From Chloroflexota bacterium (GTDB lineage Bacteria > Chloroflexota > UBA11872 > VXNJ01), in NCBI GenBank assembly GCA_026707405.1, contig JAPOWW010000004.1, positions 213,181 through 277,180 on the forward strand: DNA of 64,000 nucleotides, written 5' to 3'. The notes under the pieces were generated by a model. It was not told where the DNA came from. It saw only the letters and a program-made list of their open reading frames with translations, and did no database searches. Both the position numbers and the translations under genes were made by a program. This document shows, in pieces, positions 24,896 through 57,943 of this stretch (within the stretch, counting starts at the first letter, position 1; each line of letters begins with the position of its first letter).

Positions 24896-24968
24896 GCGGG
24901 TATGGTTCAATGGCAGAACGCAACCTTCCCAAGGTTGAAATGCGGGTTCGATTCCCGCTACCCGCTCC
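24896..24968 (+). tRNA. tRNA-Gly (anticodon CCC)
   Basis: Cloverleaf by eye: acceptor GCGGGTA/TACCCGC, D-stem GTTC/GAAC, anticodon stem CAACC/GGTTG with loop TTCCCAA, T-arm GCGGG-TTCGATT-CCCGC, discriminator T then CC. Confidence 0.85.
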
Positions 24969-27660: not shown

Positions 27661-27675
27661 AAGGAGGTAGCGATA
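27661..27675 (+). promoter_or_regulatory. Shine-Dalgarno AAGGAGG plus in-frame non-canonical AUA start of infC
   Basis: AAGGAGG at 27661-27667 and ATA at 27673-27675 in the infC frame. Upstream leader 27391-27660 is markedly AT-rich. Confidence 0.55.
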
Positions 27676-28212
27676 GCTAAGGACAGTAGGGAACTTCGAG
27701 TTAACGAGAGGATTCATATTCGGCAGGTCCATCTGATTGACGACAGAAATGTCTCAATGGGAACGGTGCCGACAGACCAGGCTTTGAGAATGGCGCGCGA
27801 ACGGGGGCTCGATCTTGTAGAAGTCTCTCCGACTCAGCGCCCACCCGTAGCAAAGATCCTCGACTACGGGAAATTCAAGTATGAGCAGAATCGGAAGGAC
27901 CGGGAGAACCGAAAGCACCAGAAGGCCGGCGAGGTCAAGGAAGTTCGCTTTCGACCTCTTACAAGCGATCACGACGTGAACTTCAAAGTCCGAACGATGC
28001 AGAAGTTCCTCAAGGCCGGCAACAAGGTCAAGGTCACTGTTCGTATGCGCGGCCGCGAGCGTATACATCCAGAGCTGGCTGCGACCCTTTTGACTAAGGT
28101 TGTCGACAAGCTCAAGCATCTTTCAACCGTAGAGCGTCCTGTTTCGGCGGAACGGTCGGACCAGATAAGCATCATCCTTTCTCCGGTACGCGGCGCTTCG
28201 AGCGGGAAGTAG
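27673..28212 (+). CDS. infC: translation initiation factor IF-3
   Basis: The ORF track starts at ATG 27757 (MGTVPTDQALRMARERGLDLVEV...), but the IF-3 N-domain (KDSRELRVNERIHIRQVHLIDDRN) is encoded in-frame upstream with no canonical start. Frame opens after TAA 27658-27660. ATA at 27673 with a perfect SD is the best start. C-terminal IF-3 domain KEVRFRP...VKVTVRMRGRE is clear. Confidence 0.85.
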   Translation: MAKDSRELRVNERIHIRQVHLIDDRNVSMGTVPTDQALRMARERGLDLVEVSPTQRPPVAKILDYGKFKYEQNRKDRENRKHQKAGEVKEVRFRPLTSDHDVNFKVRTMQKFLKAGNKVKVTVRMRGRERIHPELAATLLTKVVDKLKHLSTVERPVSAERSDQISIILSPVRGASSGK

Positions 28213-30867: not shown

Positions 30868-31498
30868 GAAATGAGAAATCCTGTTCACGATACGACCGTG
30901 AGCGGTGATAATAGGGAGACGCTCGACGCCGCTCGGTATGTCACGCGGGTTGCGTTCCAACATTTCTAATCGGGGAGCTTGGCTGGTGGCGGTATCGGCC
31001 GCATAGGCTGTTAACGTCGGCCGCGGGCACCCACCTGGTAGATCCAGGGGACGAATTTCAGTGGCAGCCGGCGGCCGTGGAGCGTCGCCTCGCTATGCTG
31101 AACAGCGTCTGTCTCTCAGCTTCGCGTGGAGACCGTTTCGGAGCGCACCGGGCGCCGGTGCGCTCAACACTTTGATGGGCTCTATGGCTTCGTCCGCGAC
31201 GCGGCGGAAAACCGGACAGATCGGCTCGGCGTATTCATAACCAAACAGTCCTGGTCTGTTGTGGGGACTAACACGTGCCGTTACTTTGTCGTTGCCATTG
31301 GGCTGTCCGGCCCAATACTCAAACAAACGTTCGTAAGACGTAATCGGTGTGATAACGTTCGCAGCGCCGAGTTTCGCGTCGAGAGAAAGCCGGGTAATTC
31401 CTTTCGGCGTTCTCGCGGCGGGCTTCGGAATCAGCTCACCGGCTGCTGACAACCGGCTCGGCAGTCGCTGGCATTGCGCTTCGAGAAGAGATGCCCCA

Positions 31499-32872: not shown

Positions 32873-34690
32873 TCAGGTTGAAGACTGCGGTACGAGGTCT
32901 TCATCGAGATCGGCTTCGTCCACCGAGAACCCCAGTCTGTACAGACGCTCGTAGTAGCCGCCCGCGTTGACCAGTTCGTCATGAGTACCTTGCTCCACTA
33001 TCCTGCCGTGGTCCATGACGATTATCCGATCGGCGTTTCTGACGGTAGAGAGCCGGTGAGCTATCACTATCGACGTTCGCCCGCGCATGAGGCGCTCCAG
33101 CGCCTTCTGAATGACTGCCTCGGTCTGCGTGTCAACGTTGCTTGTGGCTTCGTCGAGGACCAATATCTTCGGATCGTTCAGTACCGCCCTGGCGAACGAG
33201 ACGAGCTGCCGCTGGCCCACTGACAGCCGCGCCCCGCGTTCATGCACGACCGTGTCGTAGCCGAAGTCCATGTCCATCACCTGCTCGTGCAGGTTGACCA
33301 CCTTGGCGGCGGATATGACTTCCTCGTCCGAAGCGTCGGGTCTGCCAAACGTGAGGTTGTCGCGGATGCTGCCGGAAAATAAGAACGGGTCCTGAAGCAC
33401 CAGGCCGATCTGCGCTCTCAGCGATGCTTGCTCGACGCTTCGTATGTCGATTTCGTCTATCTCGATACTGCCGCCTGTCACGTCGTAGAAGCGGTGCAGG
33501 AGGTTCACGATAGTCGTCTTACCGGATCCCGTGGCTCCGACCAGAGCGATCGTTTCTCCCTGCCTGGCCCGAAACGAGACGTTCCGAAGGACCGGCTGGC
33601 CTTTCACGTATTCGAAGCCCACGTCAACGAACTGGACCCGGCCTTCGATCGCCGACATGGCCGGAGCGTCGGCCTGATCTTTTACCTTCGGTTCCTCGTC
33701 CAGAAGGCCGAATATCCGCTCGCCCGACGCCATAGCCGACTGCAAGAGGTCGAATCTCATGCCAAGCTCCTGGACCGGCTGGAACAACCGCTCGATGTAG
33801 AGAAGGAATGCCGTTACCGTTCCAAGCTCCAGCATGGAGTCCCCGAGCACGAGACGGCCGCCGACCCAGAGCACGAGACCCACGGCGATGGCCGTTAGCA
33901 AGTCGACGCCCGGAATCACGGTGACTCCGACCAGACGCGACCGCCTGTGGGCCTTGAGCTCCCGCTCCGACACTCCGAAAAACAGGGCGTTGTTCTCGGA
34001 CTCGCGGGTAAATGCCTGCGTGATTTTGACGCCCAGGATGCTCTCGGCCAGATTCGCGTTGGTCTCCGAGACGAGCTGCCGTACTTTGCGATAGGACCTC
34101 AGCGCCTGAACTTCGAAGATCGCCGCGCCTACGAGCAATAGCGGTAACACCACGAGCGTCGCCAACGCGAGCTGCCAGCTCAACGCGAACATCACGGCCA
34201 CGATTCCGACGATCATGATCAGGTCGGTGACGGTTCCGACAACCCCCTCCGTCAGGACTTCGTTGAGGGAGTTCACATCGCTGGTAAAGCGCGATATCAG
34301 CGAGCCGGTGTTCCGCGTGTCAAAGAAAGCAAGCGACAACGACTGCATCCGCTTGAAGAGCCGCGTTCGGATGTCGTAAAGCACTTTCTGGCCTACCTGA
34401 GCCAGAAGCCAGGTCTGCAACCCGATGGCCACCGATCCGCCGGCTGTGGTCGCCAGGTAGATAACGCTCAGCGCCGACAGCAGAGTAATGTTCTCGCCGG
34501 CGATTCCCTCATCGATAGCCAGCTTGACGAGTACCGGCTGCACGAGATTCATGGCGGTTATGCCGAGGGCCAGGAATCCGGCGCCGAGAGCCCTCCGGCG
34601 ATAAGGGGTCAGGAACGAGAGCAGTCGAAGCGCTATTCCGCTATTGAACCCCGCGCGTTCAACGTCGTCTTCGGTGCGGTAGTAGATCAT
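32873..34690 (-). CDS. ABC transporter ATP-binding protein/permease (type I exporter half-transporter)
   Basis: Six-TM exporter domain plus NBD with Walker A GATGSGKTT, signature LSVGQRQL, Walker B ILVLDEATS. 605 aa. Confidence 0.9.
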   Translation of the reverse strand: MIYYRTEDDVERAGFNSGIALRLLSFLTPYRRRALGAGFLALGITAMNLVQPVLVKLAIDEGIAGENITLLSALSVIYLATTAGGSVAIGLQTWLLAQVGQKVLYDIRTRLFKRMQSLSLAFFDTRNTGSLISRFTSDVNSLNEVLTEGVVGTVTDLIMIVGIVAVMFALSWQLALATLVVLPLLLVGAAIFEVQALRSYRKVRQLVSETNANLAESILGVKITQAFTRESENNALFFGVSERELKAHRRSRLVGVTVIPGVDLLTAIAVGLVLWVGGRLVLGDSMLELGTVTAFLLYIERLFQPVQELGMRFDLLQSAMASGERIFGLLDEEPKVKDQADAPAMSAIEGRVQFVDVGFEYVKGQPVLRNVSFRARQGETIALVGATGSGKTTIVNLLHRFYDVTGGSIEIDEIDIRSVEQASLRAQIGLVLQDPFLFSGSIRDNLTFGRPDASDEEVISAAKVVNLHEQVMDMDFGYDTVVHERGARLSVGQRQLVSFARAVLNDPKILVLDEATSNVDTQTEAVIQKALERLMRGRTSIVIAHRLSTVRNADRIIVMDHGRIVEQGTHDELVNAGGYYERLYRLGFSVDEADLDEDLVPQSST

Positions 34691-36456
34691 CCGGGATTGC
34701 CACCGGAGGCCGGACGCCCGTCGATTTCGAGCGCTTCGGCGGGCGACTGGAGCAGGTTGATTCGATGGTAGAGACCCCTGGCGGCGAGCAGCGCCTCGTG
34801 TGTTCCACGCTCTACGATCTTGCCGGCGTCCATGACGACGATCTCGTCGCAGTTCATAACGGTCGATACCCGCTGGCCGATCAGAATAGTCGTCCGGCCG
34901 CTAAACGCTTCTTGCAACTCTTCCCGGATGAGACGTTCGGTGGCCGTGTCCAGGCTCGCGGTGGAATCGTCCATGATCAGGACTCCAGCGTTCATCAGCA
35001 GCGCGCGCGAGATCGTCACGCGCTGGCGCTGTCCGCCGGACAGACCGACCCCGCGCTCGCCTACGATAGTGTCGTACCTATCCGGCAGGGCGTCGATGAA
35101 CCGTCCGGCCTGCGCTTGTTCGGCGGCCGCGACAATCGCGTCCAGCCGGGCGCTCGGTCTGGCGAACGCAATGTTCTTAGCCATTGTGTTCGAAAACAGG
35201 TAGGCGTCCTGAGGCACCATGGCGATCCGGCTTCGCAGCCAGTGGAGGTCGAGATCGCGTACGTCCGTTCCATCGAAGGTGAGATGCCCCGAGGAAACGT
35301 CGTAGAAGCGCATGATGAGGTTTATGAGCGTCGTCTTGCCGGAACCTGTCGGGCCGATAATGCCCAAGGTTTGCCCTGGCTCGATGACCAGATTGATGTC
35401 TCGAAGCTGAGGAGCGCCTCGACCGTAGGCGAAGGTGACGTGGTCGAATTCGACGCGACCTCGAACTGCGCGGGGCGCAAGCGCGCCTGCCTTGCTGGCG
35501 ATTTCGGGTTTGGTGTCCAAGACTTCGAACAGACGTTCCGCCGATGCGATGGCCAGTTGGAGCCGCTGGACGATGAACCCGATTCGCCGGGACGGCGGAG
35601 CCAGTCGAACGAAGTAGTAGTAGAACGCTATCAACGCCCCCACCGAGACCACGTCGGTGATAACGAGATAGCCGCCCAGCCAAATGACGGCCACCGTCCC
35701 CAGACTCGACAGGAAGAGCATCAGCGGAAAGAAGACCGACCAGTTCCGCATGGCGGCCAGCATGTTGTCGTTGAGCTGCCGGACCGACCCCGAATAGCGC
35801 TCGATCTGCCGAGGTTCCTGCGCGAATGCCTTCACGACTCGCACGCCGGTCAGGTTCTCGGTCAGGACCGCTGTCATCTCACCCCTTTGGGCCTGCACTC
35901 TGCGCCAAAGCTGACGAATGACCTTTCCGAATTTCAACGCGGTCCCAACCATCACCGGCAGCGTGACCATGGCGAGGACCGCCAACTGCCAGTTGGTGAG
36001 GACCATGGCGATGAAGACGACCACGAACGTTCCGGTGACGGTGATGATTTGAAAGAGACCCATGCCGACGGCCATGCGCGCCGACTCGATGTCGCTGACT
36101 GCGCGTGAGATCAGGTCGCCGGAGTTCGCTCTGTCGTAATACGAATAGGAGAGTGTCTGTAGATGGCTGAAATACTCGTTTCGCATGTCGCGCGAGACCT
36201 TGTGCGCCATGTACTGAATCAGGAAGTCGTGCACCGCCGTAAGTACTCCGCGGGCGATCAGCAGTCCCGCTGCCGTGGCGGCAAAAGCCAGTATGAGCGT
36301 TGTGTTCTGGTCGGCGATTCCTCGGTCGATCGCCAGGCGTATGGCCTGAGGTCCGGCCACGTCGGCGGCGATGGCGCCCACCCAGGCGAGCAGTCCCCCG
36401 GCGATGTATAACTTGTGCGGCCGCTGATAGCTGAGAAGCCGAAGAAGCGTCTTCAG
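34687..36456 (-). CDS. ABC transporter ATP-binding protein/permease (type I exporter, partner of the downstream gene)
   Basis: NBD with GPTGSGKTT, LSGGQRQRV, LIMDDSTASLD. The ORF track begins at GTG 36381 inside TM1. The in-frame sequence upstream (..HLKTLLRLLSYQRPHKLYIAGGLLAW) is a typical exporter N-terminus with no canonical start. 5' end uncertain; see findings. Confidence 0.85.
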   Translation of the reverse strand: MKTLLRLLSYQRPHKLYIAGGLLAWVGAIAADVAGPQAIRLAIDRGIADQNTTLILAFAATAAGLLIARGVLTAVHDFLIQYMAHKVSRDMRNEYFSHLQTLSYSYYDRANSGDLISRAVSDIESARMAVGMGLFQIITVTGTFVVVFIAMVLTNWQLAVLAMVTLPVMVGTALKFGKVIRQLWRRVQAQRGEMTAVLTENLTGVRVVKAFAQEPRQIERYSGSVRQLNDNMLAAMRNWSVFFPLMLFLSSLGTVAVIWLGGYLVITDVVSVGALIAFYYYFVRLAPPSRRIGFIVQRLQLAIASAERLFEVLDTKPEIASKAGALAPRAVRGRVEFDHVTFAYGRGAPQLRDINLVIEPGQTLGIIGPTGSGKTTLINLIMRFYDVSSGHLTFDGTDVRDLDLHWLRSRIAMVPQDAYLFSNTMAKNIAFARPSARLDAIVAAAEQAQAGRFIDALPDRYDTIVGERGVGLSGGQRQRVTISRALLMNAGVLIMDDSTASLDTATERLIREELQEAFSGRTTILIGQRVSTVMNCDEIVVMDAGKIVERGTHEALLAARGLYHRINLLQSPAEALEIDGRPASGGNPG

Positions 36457-36472
36457 GTGTGCACCATTTGTT

Positions 36473-37621
36473 CTACTCGGGCTTGCCCCCGGCGGCTTCG
36501 CCTATCACTTCTTGCGGGTGTTCTTCCGTTGGCGAATCGGACGGCGTACGGTCTGCTTCGGCTTTGCGAACGACGGAGACCCATCTCGTGTAAGCAGCCC
36601 TAATCGCAAAGTAGACGAGCGCTCCGAATGGGACCGCAAATACCGCTCCCCAGAATCCGGCCGCAGCCGTTCCCACAAGCACCGAGGCGATGACGACCAG
36701 CGGGTGAATTCCCACCGCGCTGCCAATCACTCTCGTCTTTACGACGTTTTCGAGGATCACCTGCACGGCCAGCAGCGCTATTCCGACCCACAGCGCGACC
36801 GTCGGGGAGGTAAGAAGCGCAACGAGGACCGGAGCCAGGATGCCCAATACGGGGCCCGCGAACGGAACGGCGAGCACCAGACCCGAGAAGATCGCGATGA
36901 CGATCACGTAGTCGAGACCCGCGATCAACATGACCACCGCAACAGCTATTCCGAACAATGTCGACTCGGTCAGCTGGCCGCGCAGGAAGCCCGCGAACGT
37001 TACCTCCACGGCCTGCACCGCCTGTCGGAACTCCGCTCCCCAAACGCCCGGCAGCGACTTCTCGAAACGGGCCAGCGCCCTGTCCCAATCGAGCACCAGG
37101 TAGAACGACACGATCAGCGTCATGAAGAAGACCAGCACCGCCGTCGCAATTCCGGTCAGTGCACCAATCAGGCCGCTCAGGGCGGTCGCGCCAAGGTCGG
37201 CAAAGTTCGATCCGAGATCGCCCAGGGCGTCCTTCAGCGCCGATTCCGGTATACCGATGCTCTCCAGCCATTGAGTAACGTCGTCGATCCAGCGCTGAAC
37301 GTCGTCGCCGTAGTCGCCGATCCGCGTGGTGATGCCCGCCAGGTCGTGCAGCACCGGCGGCACCACGAACAAGGCGGCGGCGACGCTGGCTCCCGCCAGC
37401 GCGAGATAGACGATGGCTGTCGCCGGAAATCTCGACAGCTTGAGGCGTTCCAGGCGCCGGACCGTCGGAGAGACGGCGAAACTCACGATCCAGGCGAGCA
37501 AAAAGATGAGGATCGCCGTACCGAACTGGCCGCCCAGATTCCATAAAAACTGCCCAAGCCAGACGACCGCCACGGCGATGCCGAGCAGGAGTAAGGCGTT
37601 CTGCAGCTTTTTGGAGTCCAA
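36473..37621 (-). CDS. AI-2E family transporter (PerM/YhhT-like, UPF0118)
   Basis: Eight-TM membrane protein with conserved AI-2E blocks (FYLVLDWDR..., AVPFAGPVLG...). 382 aa. Confidence 0.8.
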   Translation of the reverse strand: MDSKKLQNALLLLGIAVAVVWLGQFLWNLGGQFGTAILIFLLAWIVSFAVSPTVRRLERLKLSRFPATAIVYLALAGASVAAALFVVPPVLHDLAGITTRIGDYGDDVQRWIDDVTQWLESIGIPESALKDALGDLGSNFADLGATALSGLIGALTGIATAVLVFFMTLIVSFYLVLDWDRALARFEKSLPGVWGAEFRQAVQAVEVTFAGFLRGQLTESTLFGIAVAVVMLIAGLDYVIVIAIFSGLVLAVPFAGPVLGILAPVLVALLTSPTVALWVGIALLAVQVILENVVKTRVIGSAVGIHPLVVIASVLVGTAAAGFWGAVFAVPFGALVYFAIRAAYTRWVSVVRKAEADRTPSDSPTEEHPQEVIGEAAGGKPE

Positions 37622-37665: not shown

Positions 37666-38562
37666 CTACCGGTTCAGAGAGGGTTCCCCGTCAATCTCGC
37701 CGTGTTCCAGGTACTTTCCGGCCAGTCCGCGAACCCATGCGATGCCCTCGGTGACGAACTCTTCCGAGGTGTCTTTTCTAATCGTCGGTTCGAAGACTAT
37801 GGAAACTTCGGGATTGGCCTTCGCAACCTCTCCAATCACTCGCTCGACGTCCGCGTATCCGTCATCCGTGCGGTGAGAGGGGTGCACGGGTATGTGACCG
37901 AATTTGGCGAACTCTTCTCCGGAGCTAATGTTCCAGACGTGCATTGAAGCGACGTGCGGCGCAAGAACCCCAACTGCGGCGTGCTCGTCGCCGTTGTGGA
38001 TTTGAGCCCAGCGATGAAGGTGCCCCGTGTCGAGGCATAGCTTGAGCGGCGGGTTGGACTCGATCAGCTCGGCGAATCCGGCCGGCTGATGGAACGATCC
38101 GTGATATCCGAGAAACTCGATATGGACCTCCACGCCGTGCCGCACGGACGCTTCAGCCATCCACCCGGCGGCCTCATGGGCAAGCGTCCGCGCCGAGTCG
38201 AAGTCGATGGGTTCTTTCGAATCGGCCACGTGCGTGACCGCGAACCGGCAGCCCGTCTCGGCGGCTCGGCGCAGCGAATCATCGAGCCACTCGAACGATC
38301 TCTTACGGGCGGATGCGTCAGGATGCAGGAACAAACTTGACCGCGGCCGCTCGAATCCCCGCCACGGGGAGATGTAGGGATGATGCACGCTCAAGCCCAC
38401 GCCGCGCCGGGCGATTCCGGCGGCCAGATCTCGATATCCATCGACTGTGCAGAGCAACAGTTGCCAGTCGGTCAACCCCACGTTGTACATGCCTCGCTTT
38501 GCCAGTTTCGCCTGCCGCCAGTCGTGGAAATCAAAGCCGGGCCAGAGGTTATCCATGTTCAT
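37666..38562 (-). CDS. sugar phosphate isomerase/epimerase (xylose isomerase-like TIM barrel) family protein
   Basis: TIM-barrel pattern with metal-ligand His/Glu blocks (VHIEFLGYHG, CLDTGHLHRW). Confidence 0.65.
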   Translation of the reverse strand: MNMDNLWPGFDFHDWRQAKLAKRGMYNVGLTDWQLLLCTVDGYRDLAAGIARRGVGLSVHHPYISPWRGFERPRSSLFLHPDASARKRSFEWLDDSLRRAAETGCRFAVTHVADSKEPIDFDSARTLAHEAAGWMAEASVRHGVEVHIEFLGYHGSFHQPAGFAELIESNPPLKLCLDTGHLHRWAQIHNGDEHAAVGVLAPHVASMHVWNISSGEEFAKFGHIPVHPSHRTDDGYADVERVIGEVAKANPEVSIVFEPTIRKDTSEEFVTEGIAWVRGLAGKYLEHGEIDGEPSLNR

Positions 38563-55359: not shown

Positions 55360-55433
55360 GGCTGGGGCGGTAGGATTCGAACCTACGAATGCCGGCTCCA
55401 AAGGCCGGTGCCTTACCGCTTGGCGACGCCCCA
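55360..55433 (-). tRNA. tRNA-Gln (anticodon TTG)
   Basis: Reverse complement TGGGGCGTCGCCAAGCGGTAAGGCACCGGCCTTTGGAGCCGGCATTCGTAGGTTCGAATCCTACCGCCCCAGCC. Anticodon stem CCGGC/GCCGG with loop CTTTGGA. Closely resembles E. coli tRNA-Gln. Confidence 0.9.
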
Positions 55434-56176: not shown

Positions 56177-56252
56177 TGGTGCCGAGAGTCGGAATTGAAC
56201 CGACGACACATGGATTTTCAGTCCACTGCTCTACCGACTGAGCTATCTCGGC
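56177..56252 (-). tRNA. tRNA-Phe (anticodon GAA), CCA encoded
   Basis: Reverse complement GCCGAGATAGCTCAGTCGGTAGAGCAGTGGACTGAAAATCCATGTGTCGTCGGTTCAATTCCGACTCTCGGCACCA. Anticodon loop CTGAAAA. Near-identical architecture to E. coli tRNA-Phe. Confidence 0.9.
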
Positions 56253-57867: not shown

Positions 57868-57943
57868 TGGTGGGCGATGCAGGGCTCGAACCTGCGACCT
57901 CTACGGTGTAAACGTAGCGCTCTCCCGGCTGAGCTAATCGCCC
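57868..57943 (-). tRNA. tRNA-Val (anticodon TAC), CCA encoded
   Basis: Reverse complement GGGCGATTAGCTCAGCCGGGAGAGCGCTACGTTTACACCGTAGAGGTCGCAGGTTCGAGCCCTGCATCGCCCACCA. Anticodon stem CTACG/CGTAG with loop TTTACAC. Confidence 0.9.

Follow-up and report, generated by a model that had tools for sequence, protein, structure and literature searches.

A 64,000-nt stretch of the genome of an uncultured member of the Chloroflexota (contig JAPOWW010000004.1; hereafter the window) was analysed around the beginning of ABC1, a gene for a subunit of a putative ABC exporter. Four genes follow one another there on the minus strand, in the order AP_endonuc_2, AI-2E family transporter, ABC1 and ABC2. The junction between the AI-2E gene and ABC1 is the subject of this report, as the N-terminus of ABC1 is encoded there with no canonical start codon in front of it. 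All coordinates are positions in the window and sequences are read on the minus strand unless stated otherwise.

The AI-2E open reading frame (ORF; 37621..36473) closes with TAG at 36475-36473. Five nucleotides past this stop begins a mini-ORF of ATG (36467-36465), GTG, CAC, ACC and TGA (36455-36453), which reads MVHT. The ABC1 frame is open from 36501, directly past the TGA TAG at 36507-36502, and reads AKPPGASPSRTNGAHLKTLLRLLSYQRPHKLYIAGGLLAWVGAIAAD. No ATG, GTG or TTG occurs in this frame from 36501 to 36382, the first canonical start being the GTG at 36381, and a CTG codon at 36456-36454 shares bases with the TGA of the mini-ORF (cTGA). The original prediction, made from the letters of the window, had described this layout and its coordinates correctly, including the lack of a canonical codon before GTG 36381 and the reading MVHLKTLL that results when an AC is removed from CACAC. 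It had proposed three explanations: an assembly indel, a genuine frameshift or initiation at the CTG. We estimate that chance leaves a run of 40 codons free of canonical starts in about 15% of cases. This gap alone is unremarkable and the case therefore rests on comparison with relatives.

Conservation of the CTG codon

The junction is identical in the NCBI contig from a metagenome-assembled genome (MAG) of an uncultured Chloroflexota (DAOUHN010000002.1, GCA_034428555.1) and in the Logan assembly of SRR10996933, produced by a different assembler, in which 4,695 nt including the junction are identical. Comparison of the same junction in related genomes (loci designated here by L numbers), a check put forward with the original prediction, was also informative. 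In the closest relative, L001 (96-97% protein identity, 3.2-Mb contig), the junction reads gagtagaacaaAAGGTGCAGACCTGAAGACG: AAG replaces the ATG and CAGAC replaces CACAC, the frame relation to ABC1 is unchanged and the CTG is kept. The ATG and the CACAC run are thus specific to the species of the window, whereas the CTG and the frame relation are conserved. The same arrangement, with no upstream in-frame canonical start, was found in L002/L003, L084, L085, L088, L004, L005, L086, L087, L168 and L169, loci that come from different samples, assemblers and technologies. A metagenome scan yielded one further close relative among the matches listed, L088.

The homologous codon is CTG in 12 of the 12 aligned orthologues, which range from 100% to about 50% identity. 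By locus, CTG is found in the window, L001, L002/3, L084, L085, L088, L004, L005, L086, L087, L168, L169 and L170. The codon is ATG in L171, TTG in L006 and ATA in a sister clade (L007-L010, L017, L174/L175), while more distant homologues whose alignment reaches residue 1 have ATG, GTG or TTG. The CTG of L170 is taken as homologous because its spacing to the conserved Pro36 and to the AID motif is that of the window. L170 belongs to a subgroup at 46% identity in which the exporter pair stands directly after a divergent uvrC gene, with CTG AAG about 107 nt from uvrC (positions 2361-2470). In the relatives an in-frame stop lies 2-19 codons upstream of the codon with no canonical start in between; the stop can be very near, as in L086 (TGA ATC CTG), L002 (TAG GGT GAA GAC CTG) or L005 (8 codons before).

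Over the whole gene, the 12 orthologues share 137 conserved degenerate columns, among which codon 0, the CTG, is the only invariant codon (0/136 for the remaining columns that are fully conserved and at least 4-fold degenerate). All-leucine columns give the same picture: of 28 such columns a single codon is used by all 12 sequences only at codon 0, the 27 others using 2-5 codons. In the 24 nt before the CTG nearly every position varies across the orthologues. Codons 1-25 evolve as coding sequence and are conserved as protein, with variable columns distributed 13/11/23 over the three codon positions and pairwise differences 203/163/436. Between the close relatives L169 and L171, which have the flanks gcaaaaggactgcRagtagc-NTG-AGAACTCTGCTGCGG in common, the codon differs in its first base, C in L169 and A in L171. 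As the first base of a start codon is silent for the protein and synonymous sites are saturated, the kept C argues for selection on the weak codon; we infer that this codon is itself selected rather than accidental.

The junction thus presents what is expected of a near-cognate start: an interval free of canonical starts from the in-frame stop to the conserved N-terminus, a codon aligned with the start methionine of homologues (offset 0, 32 homologues) and nucleotide conservation beyond the need of the amino acid. Codon 36456-36454 is most likely the start codon of ABC1 and the best supported by these comparisons, which bear out the third option of the original prediction. Initiation there would give fMet-KTLLRLLSYQRPHK..., a protein of 589 aa and the first subunit of a heterodimeric ABCB-type exporter. 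Very probably, then, the sequence is correct, the gene is intact and ABC1 starts at a near-cognate CTG kept by selection, to which ribosomes are most likely delivered by upstream translation.

Possible delivery of ribosomes to the CTG codon

The position of the upstream stop differs between lineages. The AI-2E stop overlaps the start by 4 nt as cTGA in L004, L005, L086 and L088, as aTAA in L007-L010 and as aTAG in L017 and L174/L175. It lies 16 nt upstream of the CTG in the window, L001 and L085, and 60-73 nt upstream in L002, L084, L087, L168 and L169. Within the window, the AI-2E stop consequently does not overlap the CTG, only the mini-ORF of 3-4 codons does so, and a true 4-nt overlap is found between ABC1 and ABC2. 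The base after the CTG is A in 14/14 CTG loci even though residue 2 varies (K, N, S, R). Serine is encoded there by AGC or AGT, never TCN, and arginine by AGA, a codon used for no more than 1-2 of the roughly 52 arginines of those genes. An A at +4 in all 14 loci despite codon preference implies that the overlapping TGA, or the A at +4, is itself conserved. Five nucleotides before the CTG, the weak Shine-Dalgarno (SD)-like element GGTG recurs in L001, L002, L084 and L004; it is CGTG in L085 and GGTA in L088.

The overlaps suggest initiation coupled with upstream translation. The aligned sequences show directly where the start lies, that it is conserved and that relatives have the overlaps, and the following scheme would account for these findings. 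The ancestral layout, kept in many relatives, would be the 4-nt overlap of AI-2E stop and ABC1 start, as cTGA, or as aTAA/aTAG in the ATA clade. In the sub-lineage of the window the AI-2E stop would have shifted 16 nt upstream, and ribosomes may there reach the CTG with the help of the weak GGTG and/or of the mini-ORF, whose 3-4 codons end at the overlapping TGA. Translation of ABC2 would then be coupled to that of ABC1 through the true ATGA overlap. The CUG would be decoded by the initiator tRNA in dependence on upstream translation, and the weak codon might limit or regulate expression, for instance through IF3.

Several observations weigh against this scheme. L170 has the CTG with no AI-2E gene upstream, and L169 has a spacer of 65 nt with no ORF ending at the overlapping TGA, so that coupling would not be obligatory everywhere. 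In E. coli and Haloferax, a distance of 13-14 nt already lowers reinitiation by 40-80%, and hardly any is left beyond about 20-38 nt (PMC10666635), which places the 16-nt distance of the window in the range of reduced reinitiation. The SD-like element of the window amounts to GGTG only. CUG and AUA initiate at about 1-2% of the level of AUG in E. coli reporters (10.1101/063800). Finally, the evidence for the CTG start is comparative, the organism being an uncultured MAG.

The same observations leave room for ordinary de novo initiation, in which SD-guided 30S subunits would use the CUG with no upstream translation and the overlaps would reflect common compact spacing. This is a serious possibility, to which we give somewhat less than an even chance. 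The CTG of L170 is in the first gene of its operon and has GGAG upstream, and L169 shows that the codon can follow a long spacer devoid of an ORF ending at the overlapping TGA. Most starts have a G-rich SD-like element in front of them (AGGTGGA, AAGGACGAGG, AAGGA), and infC of the same genome starts at ATA behind a strong SD. The exact 4-nt overlap of the AI-2E stop in half of the near-cognate loci, the conservation against codon preference of the +4 base that creates the overlapping stop and the mere 4 nt of SD in the window speak the other way, none of them decisively.

The opposite extreme is a strict dependence on termination. The near-cognate CUG and AUA would be too weak for free 30S initiation and would serve mostly ribosomes coming straight from termination at the overlapping stop (cUGA, aUAA, aUAG). 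We regard this stronger form as rather unlikely. It would mean that exporter synthesis is strictly slaved to translation of the AI-2E transporter, that the A at +4 held against codon preference is the signature of the termination requirement, and that where the AI-2E stop has drifted upstream a tiny relay ORF (GUG-N-N-UGA in the window, 15-20 codons in L087, L168 and L171) restores termination on the CUG. Every spacer locus does contain a small ORF ending at the TGA (+1) or at a TAG (-4): ORFs ending at the overlapping TGA have 20 codons in L087 and L168 and 15 codons in L171, and that of L169 ends at TAG (-4). By our own estimate, chance would place such an ORF in roughly 50-70% of spacers of 60 nt and in about 20% of those of 16 nt. 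As the pattern is common by chance and only 3-4 independent lineages are available, it is not significant, and the relay mini-ORF was not retained as a proven feature. In the clade at about 55% identity (L087 2886-2951, L168 2374-2451, L169 2411-2481, L171 2437-2502), the conserved stretch gcaaaaggacNgcRagtagY stands directly before the start, with TAG at -4..-2; the small ORFs of this clade, of 15-20 codons, begin 1-20 nt past the AI-2E stop and end at the TAG or at the overlapping TGA. Taken together, the loci form a natural series, from a 4-nt overlap through spacers of 16 nt and of 60-75 nt to no upstream gene at all, which bears on whether start-codon stringency is relaxed by termination-reinitiation.

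Alternative readings of the junction

Public gene calls place the start of ABC1 elsewhere. The 120 best database matches were aligned to the CTG-initiated protein. The annotated methionine falls exactly on the CTG codon in 32 of them, all more distant homologues, and within 9 residues of it, at other offsets, in 11. Thirteen are more than 8 residues longer than the CTG-initiated protein. The remaining 64 are at least 10 residues short at the N-terminus (11 to 66 in complete proteins, more in one partial entry). Every database orthologue has been called with its N-terminus inside the first transmembrane helix (TM1), at starts as varied as MGAIAAD, MLAWVG, MAGPQ, MVRGIL, MVFSIA, MWGVATAMD and MDLVIPQ, among others. 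In the window the GTG at 36381 was called, a site at which the relatives have GTG, GTC, ACC, TCC, GCC or ATG.

Translation might indeed begin at this GTG or at another internal canonical codon, the 25 codons upstream being the decaying remnant of a truncated gene or pseudogene, and all public gene calls of the clade, which begin internally, would agree with it. We consider this very unlikely. The internal canonical starts scatter over offsets of 11 to 66 residues and are not conserved in sequence, whereas the protein sequence of the 25 codons is conserved and their variation is biased to the third position. Sav1866, TM288 and the full-length models all have the elbow helix and the part of TM1 that truncation would drop; the Pfam ABC_membrane domain, in which residue 23 matches profile position 6, would be shortened by a start at GTG 36381. 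With the N-terminus restored, residues 2-6 onward align with position 3-4 of the NCBIfam full-length models and with residue 4 of Sav1866. As for a pseudogene, the rest of ABC1 and its partner ABC2 are intact over about 50% divergence. The original prediction was to be refuted by read-level support for the sequence as given together with orthologues beginning at the VGAIAAD position (GTG 36381). Orthologues annotated from that position do exist, because gene callers accept only ATG, GTG and TTG; taken as a refutation they are misleading, the called starts being scattered over 11 to 66 residues. The consequence for annotation is real and broad, as the 64 shortened entries indicate: at least 25 residues are removed from ABC1, and the whole orthologous group is left without the elbow helix and part of TM1. 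Such truncated N-termini matter for structure prediction and for family models.

Programmed recoding was considered as well. Ribosomes that had initiated at ATG 36467 or GTG 36464 would pass into the ABC1 frame at ACC-TGA, either by a -1 frameshift or by a short hop. Shifts are known to be stimulated when a stop codon occupies the A site after 3-4 codons, and the GTG at -8 is kept in 6 of 7 species at ≥79% identity (GTA in L088), even where GGTG has become CGTG (L085); it is absent from L005, L086 and L169. Recoding is nevertheless highly improbable. The site reads C ACA CCT, with no slippery heptamer, and tRNA-Thr at ACC is unable to re-pair in the -1 frame (CAC or GAC); neither an X XXY YYZ nor a CUU UGA-type site, as in the -1 frameshifts of dnaX and insertion sequences (IS) or the +1 frameshift of prfB, was found. 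L005, L086, L088 and L169 have no canonical start in the required frame near the site. A conserved stimulatory RNA structure is likewise lacking: the junction folds no better than its shuffles (z = +0.82), the consensus of 9 orthologues reaches -3.5 kcal/mol with no useful covariation, and the Rfam scan of the window at gathering thresholds gave no match at the site. A genuine frameshift, the second option of the original prediction, is refuted, since all relatives have the frame arrangement in common and neither the ATG nor the CA repeat is conserved among them.

Two related candidates were rejected. Take-off and landing codons for a hop are suggestive in the window (ACC...ACG) and L004 (ATC...ATT) but fail in L088, L005, L086 and L087. 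A fusion of AI-2E and ABC1 by frameshift is not compatible with the frame of the AI-2E gene relative to the ABC gene, which differs by lineage (+1, +2, 0), nor with the in-frame stops found within 6-57 nt. The CTG also pairs in a 5-bp hairpin, CUGAA/UUCGG, with the Leu-Arg codons 4-5 (36425-36456). This hairpin has no energetic significance and is conserved mainly because the Leu-Arg codons are conserved.

The remaining option, a sequencing or assembly error in which two spurious nucleotides in CACAC (or the loss of one) part a real ATG from the ABC1 frame, has in its favour the plausible mended reading MVHLKTLL and the short repeat of CACAC, but it is refuted and retains almost no probability: instead of being absent from relatives and other assemblies, as expected of an assembly frameshift or a pseudogene, the frame arrangement is identical in two assemblies from different assemblers, holds in L001 with its AAG and CAGAC and recurs in twelve further loci with no in-frame upstream ATG.

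Frameshifts are present elsewhere in the assemblies of relatives, away from the junction. The AI-2E gene is frameshifted in L084 (about 1755-2863) and L088 (about 1300-2435), and uvrC, intact in L002, is broken in L003 (1-661), to which L002 is otherwise identical. The contig names of L084 and L003 are in long-read style. The split genes in L084, L088 and L003 may be assembly indels or real pseudogenes.

Gene neighbourhood and comparison with known systems

The features of the window are collected in Table 1.

Table 1. Positions of the features discussed and the grounds on which they were called
Feature	Position	Strand	Basis or remark
CTG, proposed ABC1 start codon	36454..36456	-	orthologue conservation, homologue Met alignment, L169/L171 switch
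GGTG, weak SD-like element 5 nt before the CTG	36462..36465	-	seen in sequence
Mini-ORF ATG GTG CAC ACC TGA, TGA overlapping the CTG	36453..36467	-	ATG species-specific
GTG called as start by gene callers (P0001, 564 aa)	36379..36381	-	not conserved
25 codons (elbow helix, first part of TM1) absent from public annotation	36382..36456	-	conserved as protein
ABC1 coding sequence as re-annotated, 589 codons + stop	34687..36456	-	Pfam ABC_membrane (PF00664), ABC_tran (PF00005); Walker B D-D
ATGA overlap, ABC1 stop/ABC2 start	34687..34690	-	sequence
ABC2, second exporter subunit	32873..34690	-	PF00664 + PF00005; canonical Walker B D-E, signature LSVGQ
AI-2E family transporter gene	36473..37621	-	Pfam PF01594; stop 16 nt before CTG
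AP_endonuc_2 / xylose-isomerase-like TIM barrel gene, likely first of four-gene operon	37666..38562	-	Pfam, synteny
infC (IF3)	27662-28212	+	ATA start 27673-27675, 5 nt after AGGAGG 27662-27667
6S RNA	30918-31087	+	Rfam, 48.5 bits, just above gathering (46.4 bits)
tRNA-Gly (CCC)	24896-24968		Rfam
tRNA-Gln (TTG)	55360-55433		Rfam
tRNA-Phe (GAA)	56177-56252		Rfam
tRNA-Val (TAC)	57868-57943		Rfam

The gene order AP_endonuc_2, AI-2E, ABC1, ABC2 on one strand is conserved to about 54% identity. The sole promoter-like site on that strand lies upstream of AP_endonuc_2 (38676-38647) and a terminator-like site follows ABC2 (32860-32845); neither kind of site is more numerous than in shuffled sequences, and it is their positions alone that fit an operon. 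ABC1 aligns with NCBIfam TIGR02204 (residues 2-570 on profile positions 4-575) and with Sav1866 (2hyd; residues 6-570 on chain residues 4-576, E = 2e-102), and the exporter also matches 3qf4_B (E = 3e-100); all NCBIfam matches of the exporter are below the curated cut-offs. ABC1 contains LIMDDST and LSGGQ, ABC2 LVLDEAT and LSVGQ. Two adjacent genes, each with a transmembrane domain (TMD) and a nucleotide-binding domain (NBD), together with a non-catalytic Walker B motif and a deviant signature, are what is seen in heterodimeric exporters of the ABCB type (type IV). From this usual asymmetry, ABC1 and ABC2 are predicted to form a heterodimeric exporter with one degenerate ATP site.

A second near-cognate start was found in infC, whose start region reads aaAGGAGGtagcgATAgctaag, with a perfect SD, an arrangement classic for IF3 genes. 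NCBIfam TIGR00168 aligns from residue 10 of its stop-to-stop ORF. The first canonical ATG, at 27757, would cost 28 residues, so that gene callers will truncate infC. The ATA start implies that near-cognate starts operate in this organism, as presumably does discrimination by IF3. For 24 ORFs of the window whose leaders are long and open, translations from stop to stop were compared with NCBIfam, where about ten had informative models of full length. Among these testable genes, infC alone requires a non-canonical start. A lineage-wide near-cognate habit was therefore discarded, and the canonical starts of the other genes indicate that the near-cognate start is gene-specific. SD motifs are sparse in the window, where the survey says little as first-in-ORF starts are unreliable. 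The Rfam matches in the window, four tRNAs and a 6S RNA, include no initiator tRNA or rRNA.

The ABC1/ABC2 pair resembles TM287/288, BmrCD and LmrCD, with the fold of Sav1866, in its two adjacent half-transporter genes each coding for ABC_membrane and ABC_tran; it differs from the three heterodimers by its conserved linkage to an AI-2E family transporter. ATGA-type overlaps have been associated with termination-reinitiation and are over-represented where the genes encode subunits of heteromeric complexes (PMC6728339; PMC10666635; PMC12548453), an enrichment that the true ATGA of ABC1/ABC2 fits. The cTGA, aTAA and aTAG of the relatives match the 4-nt NTGA coupling geometry of the same reports. 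Whereas the overlaps described there use ATG, GTG or TTG, here it is a near-cognate start that is overlapped, and the window itself has 16 nt between the AI-2E stop and the CTG. In the limited literature searched, no description of this CTG start, or of near-cognate 4-nt overlaps, was found.

The start of ABC1 would belong in kind, with good support from the comparisons above, to the near-cognate starts of infC, pcnB, sigR and ebpA. In E. coli, infC (IF3) and pcnB have conserved AUU starts that limit or autoregulate translation. As in these two genes, a near-cognate codon conserved across species stands in ABC1 where homologues have AUG. Initiation in the E. coli genes is weak and IF3-sensitive, as that of ABC1 may be. 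ABC1 also differs from infC and pcnB in its codon, CUG or, in the sister clade, AUA, in its product, a membrane exporter subunit, in its weak SD and in a start that often overlaps the upstream stop. To our knowledge, few natural CUG or AUA starts are well supported in bacteria, mostly from one genome each. Other rare starts are the GTC of Streptomyces sigR (PMC5472188), the ATT of Enterococcus faecalis ebpA (PMC4447247) and those seen by N-terminomics in Deinococcus deserti (PMC2830850). They too reportedly concern single genes with non-canonical starts that attenuate expression and were missed by automatic annotation. Those cases are reported as experimentally proven, while that of ABC1 is comparative; ABC1 stands out by conservation across a much deeper clade and by a natural CTG/ATG switch. 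With a codon invariant over about 50% protein divergence, this switch and an ATA sister clade, the comparative depth is unusual.

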